From Candidatus Omnitrophota bacterium (GTDB taxonomy: Bacteria > Omnitrophota > Gorgyraeia > Duberdicusellales > 4484-171), in the NCBI GenBank assembly GCA_014729775.1, contig WJJJ01000016.1:1-58529 (forward strand): a stretch of DNA of 58,529 bases. The letters run 5' to 3'. Below the pieces are notes generated by a model. That model was not told the origin of the DNA. It saw only the letters and a program-made list of their open reading frames with translations, and ran no database searches. Positions 3 through 23,782 of the stretch are shown here, in pieces. Each line of letters begins with the position of its first letter. Position 1 is the stretch's first letter. A program made the translations under genes and the position numbers.

Positions 3-77
3 TGGCTGCCCGGCCTGGACTCGAACCAGGAATGCTTGATCCAGAGTCAAGTGTGTTGCCAATTACACCACCGGGCA
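3..77 (-). tRNA. tRNA-Gln (anticodon CTG)
   Basis: Reverse complement folds as a cloverleaf: TGCCCGG acceptor stem, anticodon arm CTTGA-CTCTGGA-TCAAG, GGTTCGAGTCC T-arm, encoded CCA end. Confidence 0.97.
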
Positions 78-16561: not shown

Positions 16562-18256
16562 ATGGGACCTGCACAAAAAATCCTTTCCATGACGGTTATT
16601 TCGTTGCTGCTGCCCGCAGGGCAGTGTCCGGTGTTCGCCCAGCTGCCTCCCGGTGCGGAAAAGGCAACCGAAAGTCCCCGCAGGACAATCCAAAAGAAAA
16701 TCGAAGAAGAGCTGGAACGGGTTCCCCAGAAAGTACCCGAAATTTCCGAAGAGGAACCGCAGCTACAGGAAGGGGAACGGTTCTTTATTAAGGAGATTAC
16801 GCTTACCGGGTGTGAAACCGTATCTTGTGGCGAGTTCGACGCGGTATTGAGGGAGTATGAAAGCCGGGAAGTTACGCTGGGAGAACTGGACCAATTGTGT
16901 AAAAAAGTCGAACGGGAGTATCTGAAGAAGGGAATAATCGCCGCCTGTATTCTCCCGCCGCAGGAGCTTTCCCGTGGGACCGTGACGTTACGCATCGTGG
17001 AAGCGAAGCTGGGAAGTGTTGAGATACGGGATCACCGTCATTTCCGGGAGAGCCGGCTTCAATGGTACTGGAGAAGTAAACGGGGCGAAGTGTTGCGATA
17101 CGATCAACTTTACCGGGACCTTCAGCTGATGAACAAAAATCCGGACCGGACGGTATCGGCAACGCTCCATGCCGGAGAAGAACCAGAAACCACCGATGTT
17201 ATTCTGGAGGCGGAAACCGAATTTCCTGTCCATGTCACTTCCAGTTTTAATAACGAAGGCGCTTCGTCAACCGGGGTGTATCAGAAAGGTGCCGGTGCCA
17301 GGCACAATAATTTCTTGGGGCTCGATGATACTTTGCTGGCCGGCTATCTGTTTGGACGGCATTTCGACGGAAAGTATGTGTACCATTCTTTGCCGGTCAG
17401 TAATTTCGGGACGACGCTTTTGTACGGGCACAGTTACAGCAAATCGTTTCCCAAAAAAGAATTTGCGCCGTTACAGATTACCTCCCGGGCAAGAAACACG
17501 ACAGTGTCCCTTCGGCAGGATTTATTCTCCCGGGAGAAATATCTCGGCGAAGCCTATCTGACGTTCGACGCCAAGGATAAGACGGTGACGCAGATTGCCG
17601 GGACGGCGAACAGAGACCGGTTGCGGATATTTCGACTGGGAGCGTCGTTTTTGGCCCGGGGTGCACAATCGATAACCCGGATCAGTCCCGAATTCTCTCA
17701 AGGCGTCAACGGCTTCGGCGCGCGCCGCCGAAGCGCTCTGTCCAGCCGGGGCGGGGAAAACACCTTTTCCAAAGCCAATATCGGGCTCACCCATTCCCGC
17801 CTTTTGCCGTGGGATTCCGAAGGGCGGGTGCAATTTGAAGGCCAGGTGGCCACGACCACGCTTGTACCGCAGGAGGCATTTTCCCTGGGAGGGATCGATT
17901 CCGTGCGCGGCTATCCGGCGCAGGATTTTTTGGCGGACGACGCGTTTCAGTCTAACGTAGAAGTGTTTTTCCCGGCATTTTTCATCCCCGCCCGGCTGAA
18001 ACTTCCCGGTGCCGAATCCACGCTTCGCGAGGATACCGCGCCGCTGGTGTTCTTTGACTACGGCTGGGGCGCCCGTCGAAGTTACTCGCCGGCAGAGCAG
18101 GGCGATGCGCATCTTATTGGGGTCGGCGCCGGCCTGCGTCTGCGCCTGTTCAACCGTGCGTTGCTTCGTCTGGAATGGGGGTTCCCGGTCGGCGAAGACA
18201 CCATTTCCGAGGACGGAAATAGCCGATTCCATTTTTCAATCGATTTCGAAACCTGA
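16562..18256 (+). CDS. TpsB (ShlB/FhaC/HecB family) outer-membrane transporter
   Basis: Signal peptide, POTRA-like region, SVRGY loop motif, C-terminal beta-strand FHFSIDF. Confidence 0.92.
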   Translation: MGPAQKILSMTVISLLLPAGQCPVFAQLPPGAEKATESPRRTIQKKIEEELERVPQKVPEISEEEPQLQEGERFFIKEITLTGCETVSCGEFDAVLREYESREVTLGELDQLCKKVEREYLKKGIIAACILPPQELSRGTVTLRIVEAKLGSVEIRDHRHFRESRLQWYWRSKRGEVLRYDQLYRDLQLMNKNPDRTVSATLHAGEEPETTDVILEAETEFPVHVTSSFNNEGASSTGVYQKGAGARHNNFLGLDDTLLAGYLFGRHFDGKYVYHSLPVSNFGTTLLYGHSYSKSFPKKEFAPLQITSRARNTTVSLRQDLFSREKYLGEAYLTFDAKDKTVTQIAGTANRDRLRIFRLGASFLARGAQSITRISPEFSQGVNGFGARRRSALSSRGGENTFSKANIGLTHSRLLPWDSEGRVQFEGQVATTTLVPQEAFSLGGIDSVRGYPAQDFLADDAFQSNVEVFFPAFFIPARLKLPGAESTLREDTAPLVFFDYGWGARRSYSPAEQGDAHLIGVGAGLRLRLFNRALLRLEWGFPVGEDTISEDGNSRFHFSIDFET

Positions 18257-18270
18257 CTATCAGCGGATAG

Positions 18271-21200
18271 TTAACGGGCTTTGTTCAGGTTGATCACCGG
18301 CGATAGCGGGGCGAGTTTGATCAGCGGCCCGTTTGGCGCGGTGGGGAATTCGCCGAAATTCACCACCGGCGGGATGTAATAGACTGCCGGCTCCCGGGGT
18401 GAATAAGGGGTCATGCCCCAGAGATACAGGTGTTCCGGCGGAAGCTGGGCCAGCTGGGCGAACCACATGACCGTGTTGCCGCCGTCGGTCGAACCGACCG
18501 GATTGAAGACCACTCCGGTACGATTATAGGAATCTTTCACGTACACATAAGAAATATCATACGCCCCTCCGGCATCAATATTCCACTGAGAACCGGCAGA
18601 GGTGCTGGTTAAGGACAAAAGGTTTCCTGCCGTGCCTCGCAGGGTGAGGTTATTCAAGACCGTCTCGGTCGCTCCTGCCTGAAACTTTATCTCTTTGCCC
18701 GGGGTCGTGCATTCTAAGTTCCAGAATGTGGTGCCGTAGACGCGCGAAGTCCGGGATGCATCTACAAATCTTACCGTACCGTTATTATGATTGAAGGTGG
18801 CGTTCTGTACGTCAAAGTCGCCGCTGACAATCAGAAGATTCGGTGCGGTGACCGTTCCCGAAGAGATAATGAAATTTCTGGCGGTAAGATTTGCCGGTAA
18901 GGTGATGATGTTTCCTCCCAAATGGATGCCTTTGCCGCCGGTATCGCCCGGATTAAAAATGATGTTCCCGCCGGATGAAAAGAATCCGTAATTTTCTTCG
19001 GGAATTAAGTTTTCAAACCCGTTGATAGTATAGTTCCCGCTGCGCTGGGTGATCGATATGGTATTGACACCTTGTCCGGAAGCGCCCAGAAGATTGGGAA
19101 ACGCCGGCACGACGTCAAAGGATAAATTGACCGAGCCGTTATGTGCGCTGGAGGGATTCAGCGCGGCCGTATCGACTTCCTCGATATAGACGCTGCCGTT
19201 GACGGCGCTGAATTCAAGCGTCGTCGCGTCGGTACCGAGGTAAGAAGAAGGAGACCCGAGCTCTCCCGCAGCATATATTTGCACGGTATCACCGGACAGA
19301 TGCGTCGCATCATTGCCGTCGTCAAAGAACGAGCCGCCGGAGTTCTCAAGTATGATGTCGTCTGCTGAGGTTAAATCACCAAGCGTTACGCTGCCGCCGG
19401 TGGCGGTGACGGTGATATCGTTCCCGGCGCCGTTAGAGGTAGCGTTTAAGATGCTGCCTGATTCCGCGGTCGTAAAATAGATATTTCCTCCCGTAAGCGT
19501 AGCGGTTCCTGTCTGATTCACGGCGCCTGTGCCGTCACCGTCAGTGTCGGCATAGAAAAATACCGTTCCTGTTCCGGCATCAATATCAATTCCTGTGTTT
19601 TGGACAAGGTCCCCGTCGGCCAGAAAGTAAACAGCTTTATTTGTGCGGGCAAGATTCGCGTCAAGGGTAATATTATGGTTGTCGTTTGTATAAAGAGCTA
19701 AGTGACCGGTTGCCGATATATCGTTGAGCTCATTCGGCCGTAACAGCGAGCTTACGGTGATATCCGAGGCGGATTGAAGAGCGAGGTATCCTGAATTGCT
19801 GATCAGGGCCGTGCCCGGCCGGGAGAGGCTTCCTGTTCCGTCATCATCCCGGTCAGCGTACAGATATATCCCTCCTGATCCTGCGCTGAGAGTGGTTGCC
19901 GTGTTCTGGGTGAGGTCTCCGGCTGAGTAGAATTCTATCCCCCTGTCTGTACGGGTGACGTCAGCATCAATGGTAATGAAATGGTTGCCATTTGTGCAGA
20001 GGATTAAGTATCCCGTTGTCGATATGTTATTGAGCTCGTTGGGCCTCAACAGAGAGCTCACGACGATATCCGATCCGGATCTGAGCTCGAAAGTGCCCGA
20101 ATTGTTGACGATGGCCGTGCCCGGCCGGGAGAGGCTGCCGGTGCCGTCTTCGTCATAATCAGCATAGAGAAACACCTGTCCTGATCCTGCGCTGAGAGTG
20201 GTTGCTGTGTTCTGGGTGAGGTCTCCGGCTGAGTAGAATTTAATATTTTTATTTGTACGGGAAATGTCCGCATCGATGGTAATCCCGTGGTTATCCGTTG
20301 TGAAGAGGGATAATTGCCCGGTCGTTGAGACATCATTCATCTCGTTCGGCCGTAACAGCGAGCTTACGGTGATATCCGAGGCGGATTGAAGAGCGAGGTA
20401 TCCTGAATTGCTGATCAGGGCCGTTCCCGGCCGGGAGAGGCTGCCGGTACCGTCTTCGTCATAATCAGCGTATAAATATACATTCCCCGATCCCACGGTG
20501 ATGGTGGTCCCGGTGTTCTGGGTGAGGTTGCCGTCAGAGTAGAAGTAGATGCTTTGGTTCACCCGGTTGATATCAGAATCGATGGTGGTATCCGCATCGT
20601 CGGTGGTATACACATAAAGCCAGCCTGTAGTTGTGTCTCCGGCCGTCAGTACGGTGCTTGTAGCGAGATTCGATGCCGATTTAAGGGAAAAATGACTGCT
20701 GTTGGTCACCGTCGATGTGGCGTCGCGGGTCAGCGCGCCAACGCCGTTCTCGTCAGCGTCGGCATGTAGATATACGTTTCCTGATCCGGCGGTAACGTCA
20801 CTGCCGGGTCCTTGAGTGAGGTTGCCGGCTGCATAAAAGGAGATGCTCCGGTTCACGCGGGAGATATCCGAATCGATGGTGATGTCGTGATCTCCGGTAG
20901 TCGCTACAGCAAGTACGCCGGTAGTCGTGTCTCCGGCCGTAAACAGGTCCGAAGTGACAAGGTTTGATGCGGATTGAGCGAAAAACGAGCTGCTATTGGT
21001 GAGAGTCGAAGCGGCGTCGCGGGTAAGGGCTCCTGTGCCGTTTTCGTCAAAGTCGGCAACGAGAGTGATCATACCATTGCCCGCGTTGATGTCTGACCCG
21101 GCGGCGTGGATGAGGTCTCCGGCGGCGTAGAATCGGATGTTTTGGTTCGCGCGGGAGATGTCGGAGTCGATGGCGATAGCATGGTCGTTAGTGGTATATA

Positions 21201-23283
21201 CCACCAGCTCTCCGGTAACGGCATCCCCGGCCGTCAGCAGGGTGCTTGTGGCAAGGTCTGATCCGGATTTTATCCTGAAAGGACGGGTATTGCTGACGGT
21301 AGAAGCCGCGTCGCGAATGAGGGAACCGGTGCCGTTCTCGTCGTCGTCGGCATACAAATAGACAAATCCATCGCCGGCGTCTATGTCTGAACCGGCGGCG
21401 TGGGTGAGGTCGCCGGCGGCAAAGAAGCTGATCGTTTCGTCCGCGCGGGAGACGTCGGAGTCGATGGTGATCGAATGGTCGCCGGTAGTGTGCACAGACA
21501 GCTCGCCGGTCGCGGTATCGCCGGCGGTCAGCAGCGTGCTTGTGGAAAGGGCTGATCCTGATTTCATCCAGAAAGATCCGTCATTACTCACGGTAGAGGC
21601 TGCATCGCGGGTGAGTGTCCCGGTACCGTTTTCGTCAGCGTCGGCGTAGATAAAGACATCTCCGCTTCCGGCCGTGATGTCTGAGCCTGCGGTTTGAGTG
21701 ATGTTGCCGTCGGCATACAGGTCTATATCAGCGTTGTTAGTGGTGATGTCAGCGTTGACGGTGATATCATTATCGGCCTCTAATTTGAGATCGACGCTGG
21801 CGCTGCCGGTGGCCCCGGAGGTATCAAAATCGGAATTGACGACGATATCGTGCGTTGCCTGAAGGTGAATGTTGGAGAAACCCCAGAAGCTTCCGTTGGC
21901 TGAAGGGTCAAACGTAAGGCTAAGCCCGGAGTGCTCGGAGTAAGTTTCATCCGCACTGCCTCCTTCATCTCCTCCAAACACGGTGTCATATCCGCCGGCC
22001 TGGATGATGATGTCATAGGGATCGAAGAAAACCGAGCCGCCCTTGTATCCCTGCTGAGCTTCCCCCCTGATCGAGCCGTGATAGCCGAGGCCGTATTTTG
22101 CGGAGATCTCCAGGAACCCGGCATTTCCGGATACCGTCCCGCCGGAAACGTCAACCAGCGCGCCTTCCCGGTAATCGGTATCCCCTTCTAATGTGTTGAT
22201 GTAGACGTCGCCCCCTTCGGACAGCGTATTCTTTCCTTTGGCTTCAATGAGTGTGCCGTCTTCATAGACGCTTAGCGTTTGGCCCACTAAGTCAATATCT
22301 CCTGCTTTTGCGTGATCATGAGCGTTGGCTTTGATGATGCCTTCAGAGAGAATCGTATCGGCTGCGACCGCAACCTTTCCCCCGTCCGCGCCTTCCCGGA
22401 TTCCGGAGACATCCATTACTCCCGAAATGCTTACGGTTTTGTCGGCCACAAGTTCGATACGTCCGTCGCGATGTTGCAACGAGCGGGCCTGTACGATCCC
22501 GTCGAGATTGATCGCATTGCTGAAGATGTCGGTGATACTTTGCGCTTTTAGCACCACCACTCCTCCGTCCGAGGAAAGTTCTCCCGTATTTTTTATCTGA
22601 TCAGTGAGGGGCCTGCCGTCAAAGTCATTTATGGTTGAGGCAACGGCCTCATCGATGGCAACGGAAATCAGTCCTTCCCCGGCGATGTCTAACTTTATCG
22701 CATCTCCGGATGCCAGCACGATTTTTCCGACGGGCGCGGTAATGACGCCGTTGTTCTCGATGCCGCCGGCGATCAGTACGCCGAATCCGCCTTCGCTCAC
22801 GTTAATTGTCCCGTCGTTTTTCAGCAGTATATCCAATTGTTCATCGGAGAGTTTTTTAAACAGGTAGTTTCCGGACAAGAAGTCAGAGTTGGTGATATCC
22901 CGCGTGGAAATGACGGCACTTGCCGCATCGATTTTGGCGTTGGGGCCGACATACACACCGGATTGATTAACCAATATAAACACGCCGTTACAGGAAACCG
23001 AGCCCAGGATATTGGAAAACTCTTTCCCGACCACGCGGTTTAAGATTTCAGCTTTCACCGAAGGGAGATTGATGATCAGGGATTCTTCTTTTCCTAAACT
23101 GAAATTCCTGTAGTTGATGATGGTTTTATCCGAGGCGTTAATCCGTAGGGTTTTTTCGTCGATCTGTTCTACTTCGGCCTCGCCGTGGATGATCTCCGCC
23201 AGTGTGGGCAATGCCCAGGCCGGAGGCAGGCCGATGAGCAGAGCCGAAATGACCACACAAATCAATTTCATCCAGTAGGTCAT
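18271..23283 (-). CDS. TpsA filamentous haemagglutinin-like exoprotein, 1670 aa
   Basis: Signal peptide AWA-LP, TPS domain (ILNRV...NGVFILVNQSGVYVG), Gly/Asp/Thr-rich beta-helix-like body with long repeats. Confidence 0.92.
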   Translation of the reverse strand: MTYWMKLICVVISALLIGLPPAWALPTLAEIIHGEAEVEQIDEKTLRINASDKTIINYRNFSLGKEESLIINLPSVKAEILNRVVGKEFSNILGSVSCNGVFILVNQSGVYVGPNAKIDAASAVISTRDITNSDFLSGNYLFKKLSDEQLDILLKNDGTINVSEGGFGVLIAGGIENNGVITAPVGKIVLASGDAIKLDIAGEGLISVAIDEAVASTINDFDGRPLTDQIKNTGELSSDGGVVVLKAQSITDIFSNAINLDGIVQARSLQHRDGRIELVADKTVSISGVMDVSGIREGADGGKVAVAADTILSEGIIKANAHDHAKAGDIDLVGQTLSVYEDGTLIEAKGKNTLSEGGDVYINTLEGDTDYREGALVDVSGGTVSGNAGFLEISAKYGLGYHGSIRGEAQQGYKGGSVFFDPYDIIIQAGGYDTVFGGDEGGSADETYSEHSGLSLTFDPSANGSFWGFSNIHLQATHDIVVNSDFDTSGATGSASVDLKLEADNDITVNADITTNNADIDLYADGNITQTAGSDITAGSGDVFIYADADENGTGTLTRDAASTVSNDGSFWMKSGSALSTSTLLTAGDTATGELSVHTTGDHSITIDSDVSRADETISFFAAGDLTHAAGSDIDAGDGFVYLYADDDENGTGSLIRDAASTVSNTRPFRIKSGSDLATSTLLTAGDAVTGELVVYTTNDHAIAIDSDISRANQNIRFYAAGDLIHAAGSDINAGNGMITLVADFDENGTGALTRDAASTLTNSSSFFAQSASNLVTSDLFTAGDTTTGVLAVATTGDHDITIDSDISRVNRSISFYAAGNLTQGPGSDVTAGSGNVYLHADADENGVGALTRDATSTVTNSSHFSLKSASNLATSTVLTAGDTTTGWLYVYTTDDADTTIDSDINRVNQSIYFYSDGNLTQNTGTTITVGSGNVYLYADYDEDGTGSLSRPGTALISNSGYLALQSASDITVSSLLRPNEMNDVSTTGQLSLFTTDNHGITIDADISRTNKNIKFYSAGDLTQNTATTLSAGSGQVFLYADYDEDGTGSLSRPGTAIVNNSGTFELRSGSDIVVSSLLRPNELNNISTTGYLILCTNGNHFITIDADVTRTDRGIEFYSAGDLTQNTATTLSAGSGGIYLYADRDDDGTGSLSRPGTALISNSGYLALQSASDITVSSLLRPNELNDISATGHLALYTNDNHNITLDANLARTNKAVYFLADGDLVQNTGIDIDAGTGTVFFYADTDGDGTGAVNQTGTATLTGGNIYFTTAESGSILNATSNGAGNDITVTATGGSVTLGDLTSADDIILENSGGSFFDDGNDATHLSGDTVQIYAAGELGSPSSYLGTDATTLEFSAVNGSVYIEEVDTAALNPSSAHNGSVNLSFDVVPAFPNLLGASGQGVNTISITQRSGNYTINGFENLIPEENYGFFSSGGNIIFNPGDTGGKGIHLGGNIITLPANLTARNFIISSGTVTAPNLLIVSGDFDVQNATFNHNNGTVRFVDASRTSRVYGTTFWNLECTTPGKEIKFQAGATETVLNNLTLRGTAGNLLSLTSTSAGSQWNIDAGGAYDISYVYVKDSYNRTGVVFNPVGSTDGGNTVMWFAQLAQLPPEHLYLWGMTPYSPREPAVYYIPPVVNFGEFPTAPNGPLIKLAPLSPVINLNKAR
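19525..21648 (-). repeat. intragenic tandem repeats in TpsA (4 x 98 aa + 3 x 102 aa)
   Basis: Eight copies of xADxD(E/D/G)(N/D)GxG spaced 294 or 306 nt apart; near-identical DNA blocks starting at 19729 and 20341. Confidence 0.9.
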
Positions 23284-23535
23284 TTACTTCTCCTCCCGGT
23301 TATCCTCCAGCGAGGAAAGCAGGCCCTGCCACAGTTCCTTATGTTCCAAATCAAGGCGGTTTACGTCGATCCCCAAGTGCATCAGCAGGGTGACCAATTC
23401 CGAAAGGATCTGGGAGCGCGCGAGCCGGTGGCCGTATTTGAACCGGTAATCTTTGGTGATCTTGTCCAGAAAGTCGATTTGCTGCCGGTTCAGGTGCGTC
23501 ACGCAGGCGATATTAGTCCGGTTTGTTTTTTTCAT
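23284..23535 (-). CDS. 83-aa hypothetical protein, possibly ribbon-helix-helix-like
   Basis: Short strand followed by helices (VTHLNRQQIDFLDKI...RSQILSELV); its stop codon abuts the tpsA ATG. Confidence 0.75.
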   Translation of the reverse strand: MKKTNRTNIACVTHLNRQQIDFLDKITKDYRFKYGHRLARSQILSELVTLLMHLGIDVNRLDLEHKELWQGLLSSLEDNREEK

Positions 23536-23556: not shown

Positions 23557-23596
23557 AAAAAAAGAACCCATAGCCCGAGAAGCTATGGGTTCTTTT
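23557..23596 (-). terminator. intrinsic terminator (riboswitch expression platform)
   Basis: AAAAGAACCCATAGC-TTCTCGG-GCTATGGGTTCTTTT perfect stem ending in a U7 tract, about 20 nt upstream of the small ORF. Confidence 0.9.
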
Positions 23597-23614
23597 ATGC
23601 ACGAGAGTCACGGA

Positions 23615-23782
23615 GCGTCTTTGTTTTCGGTAGCTGACTGCCATAGCGTGTTTCGCGTTAGGCTCTGTGAGCTTTGCCACGCCTCTCCGCGGTGCGGATG
23701 GCGAGGTCATCCCGCATATGTAGGAGAACGCGGGAGACGTCGTCCGGTTTCCCGGATTTTGCCGGTTCGGTACAAAGAACGC
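23615..23782 (-). ncRNA. c-di-GMP-I (GEMM-I) riboswitch with internal 62-nt insertion
   Basis: GGCAAA-ATCCGG-GAAA-CCGGAC-G[insert]GGCAAAGC-TCACAGAGCCTAA...TATGGCAGTCAGCTACCGAA; GAAA tetraloop and CCTAA/TATGG receptor; closing stem TCTTTGT/ACAAAGA. Confidence 0.85.

Follow-up and report, generated by a model that had tools for sequence, protein, structure and literature searches.

Can a riboswitch accept a large structured addition directly beside its ligand and still function? The cyclic di-GMP-I (c-di-GMP-I or GEMM-I) aptamer has one of the best-studied riboswitch folds, and its P2 internal loop and two-base-pair (2-bp) lower stem, which lie beside the ligand, are described as highly conserved. 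The question is raised by a locus of Candidatus Omnitrophota contig WJJJ01000016.1, of which a stretch of 58,529 nt (the window, to which unprefixed coordinates refer) was analysed. Candidatus Omnitrophota is also the label on the nearest relatives of a housekeeping protein encoded in the window. In a first-pass annotation made from the sequence alone, positions 23615–23782 of the minus strand (hereafter, the target) were described as a c-di-GMP-I riboswitch interrupted by a structured insertion. We argue below that the target is probably a functional c-di-GMP-I aptamer and that it represents a two-hairpin variant common in Candidatus Omnitrophota. As a common natural variant, it indicates that a large addition is tolerated at the P2 internal loop and 2-bp stem, and it provides a natural experiment on the tuning of a second-messenger sensor by peripheral helices.

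The conserved aptamer core

Read from 23782 to 23615 on the minus strand, the target contains the full set of c-di-GMP-I landmarks in intact order, both in its sequence and in the Rfam alignment, as the first-pass annotation had stated. RF01051 aligns over all 87 model positions (23626–23773; in a 501-nt scan, 30.6 bits and E = 3.7e-4). The target has 80 nt where the model has 19, and the P3 receptor motif and its AG bulge are placed with high posterior probabilities. The blocks GGCAAA, GAC, GCAAAGC and CCGAA follow one another in order, the CC of the last being present. Minimum free energy (MFE) folds close the aptamer with a 10-bp P1 helix in which GCGU.CUUUGU pairs with ACAAAGACGC. The GC of GGCAAA and the GC of GCAAAGC form the lower stem, and these GC/GC pairs are found unchanged in all 35 aligned sequences; a GNRA loop caps P2 in all 27 variants collected below.

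The residue numbers G20, A47 and C92 used here were placed on Rfam columns partly by what we take to be their established positions. The target keeps A at 23675 (A47) and CC at 23629–23630 (C92), the latter within GCUACCGAA, which ends at 23626. It also keeps G at 23763, which we take to be G20, a label with support from PMC3764141. The earlier claim that the pocket fits c-di-GMP rather than cyclic GMP-AMP (cGAMP) is thus borne out by the G that opens GGCAAA, the A that follows GC in GCAAAGC and the CC of CCGAA. The parts of both long-range contacts, namely the GAAA loop with its receptor and GAC with the AG bulge, are kept as well. Because pocket bases and both long-range contacts are retained, the ligand is most likely still c-di-GMP, the parental ligand being the default expectation.

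Structure of the inserted segment

An extra stretch of 61 nt (23678–23738) separates GCAAAGC from the GAC in the internal loop of P2. The first-pass annotation had recognised this insert, with borders that now move slightly (it gave 62 nt at 23679–23740), and sequence and folds agree with its view that a structured extra domain occupies a normally contiguous, conserved segment. The insert leaves the chain between the C44 equivalent, in GAC, and the G45 equivalent, the first base of the 2-bp lower stem. In the Vc2 aptamer, C44 pairs with the bulged G83 of the neighbouring helix and so keeps the helices parallel, a G83C mutant does not fold, the G45–C22 pair takes an A-minor contact from A49 that supports the stacking of A47 on the ligand, and both C44 and G45 are listed as highly conserved (PMC11705072, PMC3764141).

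Folded alone or inside the aptamer, the insert has an MFE structure of two side-by-side hairpins (−30.9 kcal/mol), and its folding energy is low relative to 200 dinucleotide shuffles (z = −3.75). Hairpin A is drawn here with 9 bp, one bulged U and a 14-nt loop, to which the MFE fold adds two pairs (11 bp, 10-nt loop); hairpin B has a U.U mismatch at its second pair and abuts GCAAAGC. As modelled, the two hairpins turn the P2 internal loop into a four-way junction. The covariance model R1, built from relatives as described below, aligns both target helices with the family hairpins. The two-hairpin fold of the target, taken alone, is moderately convincing; the comparison with the family carries the argument.

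A different fold had been proposed in the first-pass annotation, namely a single long stem enclosing a second hairpin, which would make the site a three-way junction. All pairs of this fold are standard, it lies only 4.1 kcal/mol above the optimum (−26.8 kcal/mol), and at least one member of the class appears by eye to have one long hairpin instead of two at the insertion site (G100:C42:852–918). At equilibrium, however, each of its pairs forms with a probability of about 0.003; hairpin A, being transcribed earlier, could form before the 3' strand of the long stem has been made; R1 aligns the target as two hairpins; and the fold common to the relatives is the shared pair of hairpins, not the long stem. 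We consider it very improbable that the long stem is the functional fold of this copy.

The 81-nt stretch around the insert occurs once in the 1.65-Mb genome, all other matches being at most 17 nt long. An origin of the insert from a repeat or mobile element was considered and is ruled out by this single copy.

Recurrence of the two-hairpin variant

The first-pass annotation described a riboswitch interrupted by the insertion, but the insertion is not unique: two hairpins recur at this position in relatives, and the target belongs to this variant. The same genome holds two further c-di-GMP-I copies (contigs C19 and C30) with two hairpins between GAC or GGC and GCAAAGC, and the arrangement is shared by 5 of 40 long RF01051 matches fetched from 40 related genomes, the others having their extra length in P3.

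A strict sequence pattern (GGCAAA, 16 nt, GRCG, 33–63 nt, GCAAAGC) was found in 55 of the 401 genomes of this class that were sampled (69 rows, against 6, by our count, for a reversed-pattern control), and 50 of the 69 rows, from 42 genomes, have by eye a 6-bp P2 capped by a GNRA loop. R1 gave 89 matches in 27 of 40 related genomes, and 22 of the 89 matches carry the insert on reading. The model recovers copies that the strict pattern cannot see, with a hairpin A that starts with C or with GUC at the junction; one variant among the fetched RF01051 matches (L037) is absent from the R1 list of 89. Two other phyla served for comparison. In that of Thermodesulfatator (301 genomes) the strict pattern gave 16 matches against 13 for the reversed control, and in that of Herbinix (201 genomes) 11 against 3, both close to background. 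By eye, none of the matches in these two phyla has a clear GNRA-capped P2, with one ambiguous case (G478:C8). Judged from these pattern counts, the variant is clade-enriched in Omnitrophota relative to the two phyla compared.

The site also accommodates other sizes of insertion. A much longer structured insertion of about 150 nt stands there in L197 (G002:C1:1255713–1255930, minus strand), and in L196 GUC replaces GAC and hairpin B spans about 70 nt. Three variant riboswitches (L184, L185 and L186) lie within 12 kb of one contig (G008:C6, 51.9–64.5 kb), and two of them are near-identical for more than 100 nt 3' of the aptamer core, which suggests duplicated riboswitch–gene cassettes. In the genome of the target, two aptamers of the c-di-GMP-I type stand in tandem about 50 nt apart (C29:21618–21723 and 21774–21880; L003).

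Conservation and covariation of the hairpins

In all 27 collected variants the insert forms two hairpins that are flush with its borders, compared with 450 of 5400 dinucleotide shuffles (mean z = −5.2), and no linker separates hairpins A and B in 24 of the 27. Stem lengths range from 5 to 16 bp for hairpin A and from 6 to 14 bp for hairpin B, with largely unrelated sequences; by eye, hairpin A has only 4 bp in L190 and L191. The first pairs of hairpin A are biased (G-C or G-U, U-A, C-G in 24 of 27).

A MAFFT alignment of the 27 variants (A1) misaligned the inner hairpin strands and was set aside, and a subset (A2) was modelled in its place: R1 is the covariance model of nine variants from A2 and includes both hairpins. 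In a crude alignment of nine sequences made with MAFFT, the paired cells amount to 81%, against 38–52% when the partners are slid. Alignment A3 comprises 35 sequences and was fitted to the model, which inflates its pairing; in it, 92.7% of the cells of hairpin A and 93.9% of those of hairpin B are paired, against 36–47% for slid partners over the whole structure. Both sides change in 8 of 9 pairs of hairpin A and in 8 of 8 of hairpin B, and none of 500 shuffles reached the observed covariation score. That the two hairpins are a selected structure is well supported for the variant as a family by these comparative data. The first-pass annotation had named homologous leaders and covariation in the insert as a test of its proposal; the insert proves not to be unique to one genome, and its hairpins covary.

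What the hairpins might do is a separate matter. Past the initial pairs, their length and sequence are free to vary; this speaks against a second specific pocket and favours a role in structure or folding at the level of the junction. The two hairpins may thus assist the structure or folding of the junction beside the pocket rather than act as a second sensor. No evidence was gained for the earlier suggestions that the insert senses a second signal, serves as a docking site or alters specificity, the hairpins varying from 4 to 16 bp and in sequence. It is unlikely, in our estimation, that they change the function of the RNA, such that it would bind another cyclic or linear dinucleotide or take a second input (a protein, a small RNA or a second ligand) as a distinct subclass. 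The insertion does split two highly conserved neighbours, the C44 and G45 equivalents (PMC3764141, PMC11705072), the first pairs of hairpin A show the sequence bias noted above (24 of 27), and the variant is clade-enriched. On the other side, the G20, A47 and C92 equivalents are unaltered in the target, the free lengths and loops of the hairpins leave nothing conserved outside the junction that could serve as a pocket or docking surface, and single genomes hold both variant and ordinary copies, before similar classes of genes. It is likewise rather unlikely, but of consequence, that the paired hairpins define a functionally distinct, Omnitrophota-enriched subclass in which the junction retunes affinity, ligand range or kinetics or admits a second input. 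If this were true, about one c-di-GMP riboswitch in four would, in these small-genome bacteria, work differently from the Vc2 type.

Detection by covariance models

The first-pass annotation anticipated that standard covariance models would miss the element, and they do. The gathering cut-off of RF01051 is 35 bits, and a scan of the whole window at gathering level did not report the c-di-GMP-I family; a scan of the whole genome (1.65 Mb) with RF01051 returned only a 17.4-bit fragment at the target. The score falls short because RF01051 passes over all of P2 as a local gap. Across the variants, Rfam at its own cut-off detects 7 of 20 loci, or 10 of 27 over all scans combined. R1, in contrast to these figures, matches 27 of 27 collected variants and finds the target genome-wide with a full-length match (36.4 bits, E = 1.1e-7). 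Omnitrophota are an uncultured and largely uncharacterised phylum in which c-di-GMP regulons are under-annotated, and a dedicated model recovers the variant copies.

Evidence for and against a functional target

Several points weigh against reading the target as a functional two-hairpin aptamer with the regulatory logic proposed in the next section. Its RF01051 score is below the gathering score (30.6 vs 35 bits). Under R1 it ranks last among the 27 variants, at 36.4 bits, and the 5' halves of ordinary GEMM-I copies reach 19.6–36 bits with this model, so that the target does no better. Two flush hairpins also form in 33 of 200 shuffles of its own insert. P2 contains an A.C mismatch, hairpin A a bulged U and hairpin B a U.U mismatch. 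The 27 variants were partly chosen by hand, three pattern matches that were not riboswitches having been dropped, and in two of them a later GCAAAGC was taken, the first one lying inside a loop; the inflated pairing of A3 belongs here as well. No orthologous leader was found, and the hairpins of the target itself have no direct compensatory support. As regards regulation, a simple consensus terminator scan made no minus-strand call at 23557–23602, the OFF logic is drawn from thermodynamic folds alone, and the proposed antiterminator would span the entire aptamer, which is unusual.

The search for orthologues compared the target leader with 40 other genomes by DNA similarity and gave only short core matches, in 3 of the 40. 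Two candidates were considered and rejected. The leader L188 (G022:C1:641162–641386) resembles the target in P3 and in its terminator, CCCAUAG/CUAUGGG, and is followed by open reading frames (ORFs) dissimilar to the 83-aa ORF downstream of the target. A variant riboswitch in G259:C33 has an identical A.C-containing P2 and a subtilase/FG-GAP protein downstream.

Some of these points would be expected if the target were a decaying or non-functional descendant of the variant family: the lowest R1 score among the variants and a score under the Rfam cut-off, the mismatches in P2 and hairpin B with the bulge in hairpin A, and the lack of an orthologue. Yet every conserved core block is intact, a clean 10-bp P1 is linked to a strong terminator, for which a matching alternative pairing exists, the same A.C-containing P2 recurs in another variant riboswitch (G259:C33), and the target heads an intact operon. 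Decay is, in our assessment, quite unlikely, and the function of this copy is moderately supported. The reading as a functional two-hairpin aptamer remains the probable one.

Expression platform and downstream genes

The features of the locus are listed in Table 1. The segment 3' of the aptamer may act as an expression platform. Within the P1 5' strand (23772–23782), the core GUUCUUU is complementary to AAAGAAC and has the same sequence as the start of the terminator 3' strand. The P1 5' strand is likewise complementary to both the 5' strand of the terminator and its 5' flank, and is a candidate antiterminator strand. When the leader is folded without the terminator 3' strand, the MFE structure pairs the P1 5' strand with the AAAGAAC segment, and P1 is not formed.

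From these folds, ligand binding would lock P1 and release the AAAAGAAC segment, the 17-bp terminator would form, and the downstream operon (the 83-aa ORF and tpsA) would be switched OFF. With ligand absent, the P1 5' strand would act as an antiterminator by pairing with the AAAAGAAC segment. We lean towards an OFF switch on this basis.

Other observations concern the same region. At 23557–23602, the terminator scan gave only a 6-pair site on the plus strand (23572–23591). The terminator hairpin has an A-run on its 5' side and a U-run on its 3' side, and bidirectional termination may be possible. A promoter scan gave no sigma-70-like site on the minus strand, and no RNA sequencing run was listed as covering the stretch. 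In the target as in L188, the receptor strand contains GCUAUGG, to which the terminator 5' strand is complementary; this may be a second antiterminator pairing.

Table 1. Features of the target riboswitch and its neighbourhood, in window coordinates.
Feature	Position	Strand	Basis
P1 5' strand, GCGUUCUUUGU	23772–23782	−	MFE folds of 176-nt and 260-nt leader
GGCAAA; first G (23763) = G20-equivalent pocket base	23758–23763	−	Rfam alignment
P2 hairpin (alias P1b): A.C mismatch, 5 bp UCCGG/CCGGA, GAAA tetraloop	23742–23757	−	Fold
GAC, 3' side of P2 internal loop; C = C44 equivalent	23739–23741	−	Sequence
Extra hairpin A: GUC-UCCCGC / GCGGGA-U-GAC	23706–23738	−	MFE folds, R1 alignment, covariation
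Extra hairpin B: C(U)CGCC-A-UCCGC-ACC-GCGGA-GA-GGCG(U)G	23678–23705	−	MFE and near-optimal folds, R1 alignment, covariation
GCAAAGC: lower-stem 3' strand and AAA junction, A47 equivalent at 23675	23671–23677	−	Rfam alignment
P3: tetraloop receptor CCUAA...UAUGG, AG bulge (G83 equivalent), then GCUACCGAA	23626–23670	−	Rfam alignment
P1 3' strand, ACAAAGACGC	23615–23624	−	MFE folds
Putative expression platform: GUGCAUAAAAGAAC (complementary to P1 5' strand), 17-bp terminator hairpin, 7 U	23557–23602	−	Sequence, folds
83-aa ORF, first downstream, no Pfam family	23284–23535	−	ORF and Pfam scan
TpsA-type exoprotein/adhesin, 1670 aa, N-terminal two-partner-secretion (TPS) domain	18271–23283	−	PF05860, E = 7.5e-22
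TpsB-type outer-membrane transporter (ShlB/FhaC, POTRA_2), convergent with tpsA	16562–18256	+	PF03865, E = 1.3e-28; PF08479, E = 7.3e-13

The 83-aa ORF directly adjoins tpsA, with its stop at 23284 and the tpsA ATG at 23283. The 1670-aa TPS protein is the likely regulated cargo, and the finding ties c-di-GMP signalling to a two-partner-secretion adhesin operon in this genome. The gene family fhaC is named among those associated with GEMM in the original description of the motif (Weinberg 2007). The genes 3' of other variant copies encode a subtilase/FG-GAP/fn3 protein, a MORN-repeat protein and proteins without a Pfam family. At the edge of the window, a tRNA gene (6–77, minus strand; 61.6 bits) is the sole Rfam family found at gathering level.

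Comparison with known systems

With the c-di-GMP-I riboswitches (RF01051, Vc2), the target shares the order of blocks, the GNRA tetraloop, the 11-nt-type receptor, the GAC/AG bulge and the pocket bases, as well as a place in a 5' leader with an intrinsic terminator, ahead of secretion and adhesion genes. It differs from them in 61 additional nt, folded as two hairpins, that separate the 3' side of the loop from the lower stem and for which RF01051 has no model positions. The original motif was described with 2-bp and 6-bp stems (there P1) around a 3-nt internal loop, and that motif description makes no mention of extra helices (Weinberg 2007). A full-text literature search returned no paper describing hairpins at this site; such sequences may stand unremarked in the alignments of the GEMM papers or in the full Rfam alignment. 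By its sequence and modelled junction, the target is best described as a structural variant of the known c-di-GMP-I class, of a four-way-junction type undescribed in the literature searched.

Same-fold variants of the class are already kept as separate Rfam models, namely c-di-GMP-I-GGC and c-di-GMP-I-UAU (clan CL00126), and some ordinary copies in the genome of the target score best on the c-di-GMP-I-GGC model. Those variants are defined by altered pocket nucleotides; unlike them, the two-hairpin variant keeps the parental pocket and alters the architecture.

The cGAMP riboswitches (GEMM-Ib, Geobacter) have the same overall fold as the target. Their signature is A for G at the first base of GGCAAA, the G20 position, where the target has G. 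To our knowledge, inserted hairpins are undescribed for GEMM-Ib. Separately from the target, AGCAAA replaces GGCAAA in three ordinary copies of its own genome (L001, C18:55341–55427; L002, C13:30374–30460; L004, C17:81023–81108) and in four copies of relatives, variant copies among them (L026, L185, L194 and L196). The A at the G20 position in these copies is what we take to be the cGAMP-sensing signature, which would be unexpected in Omnitrophota.

Optional peripheral helices are known from other riboswitch classes, such as the variable extensions of cobalamin and thiamine pyrophosphate aptamers. Like those extensions, the two hairpins are helices of variable length on a conserved core, free in sequence and kept in pairing. 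Unlike them, the addition lies two base pairs from the ligand, between highly conserved neighbours, and consists of an abutting pair of hairpins.
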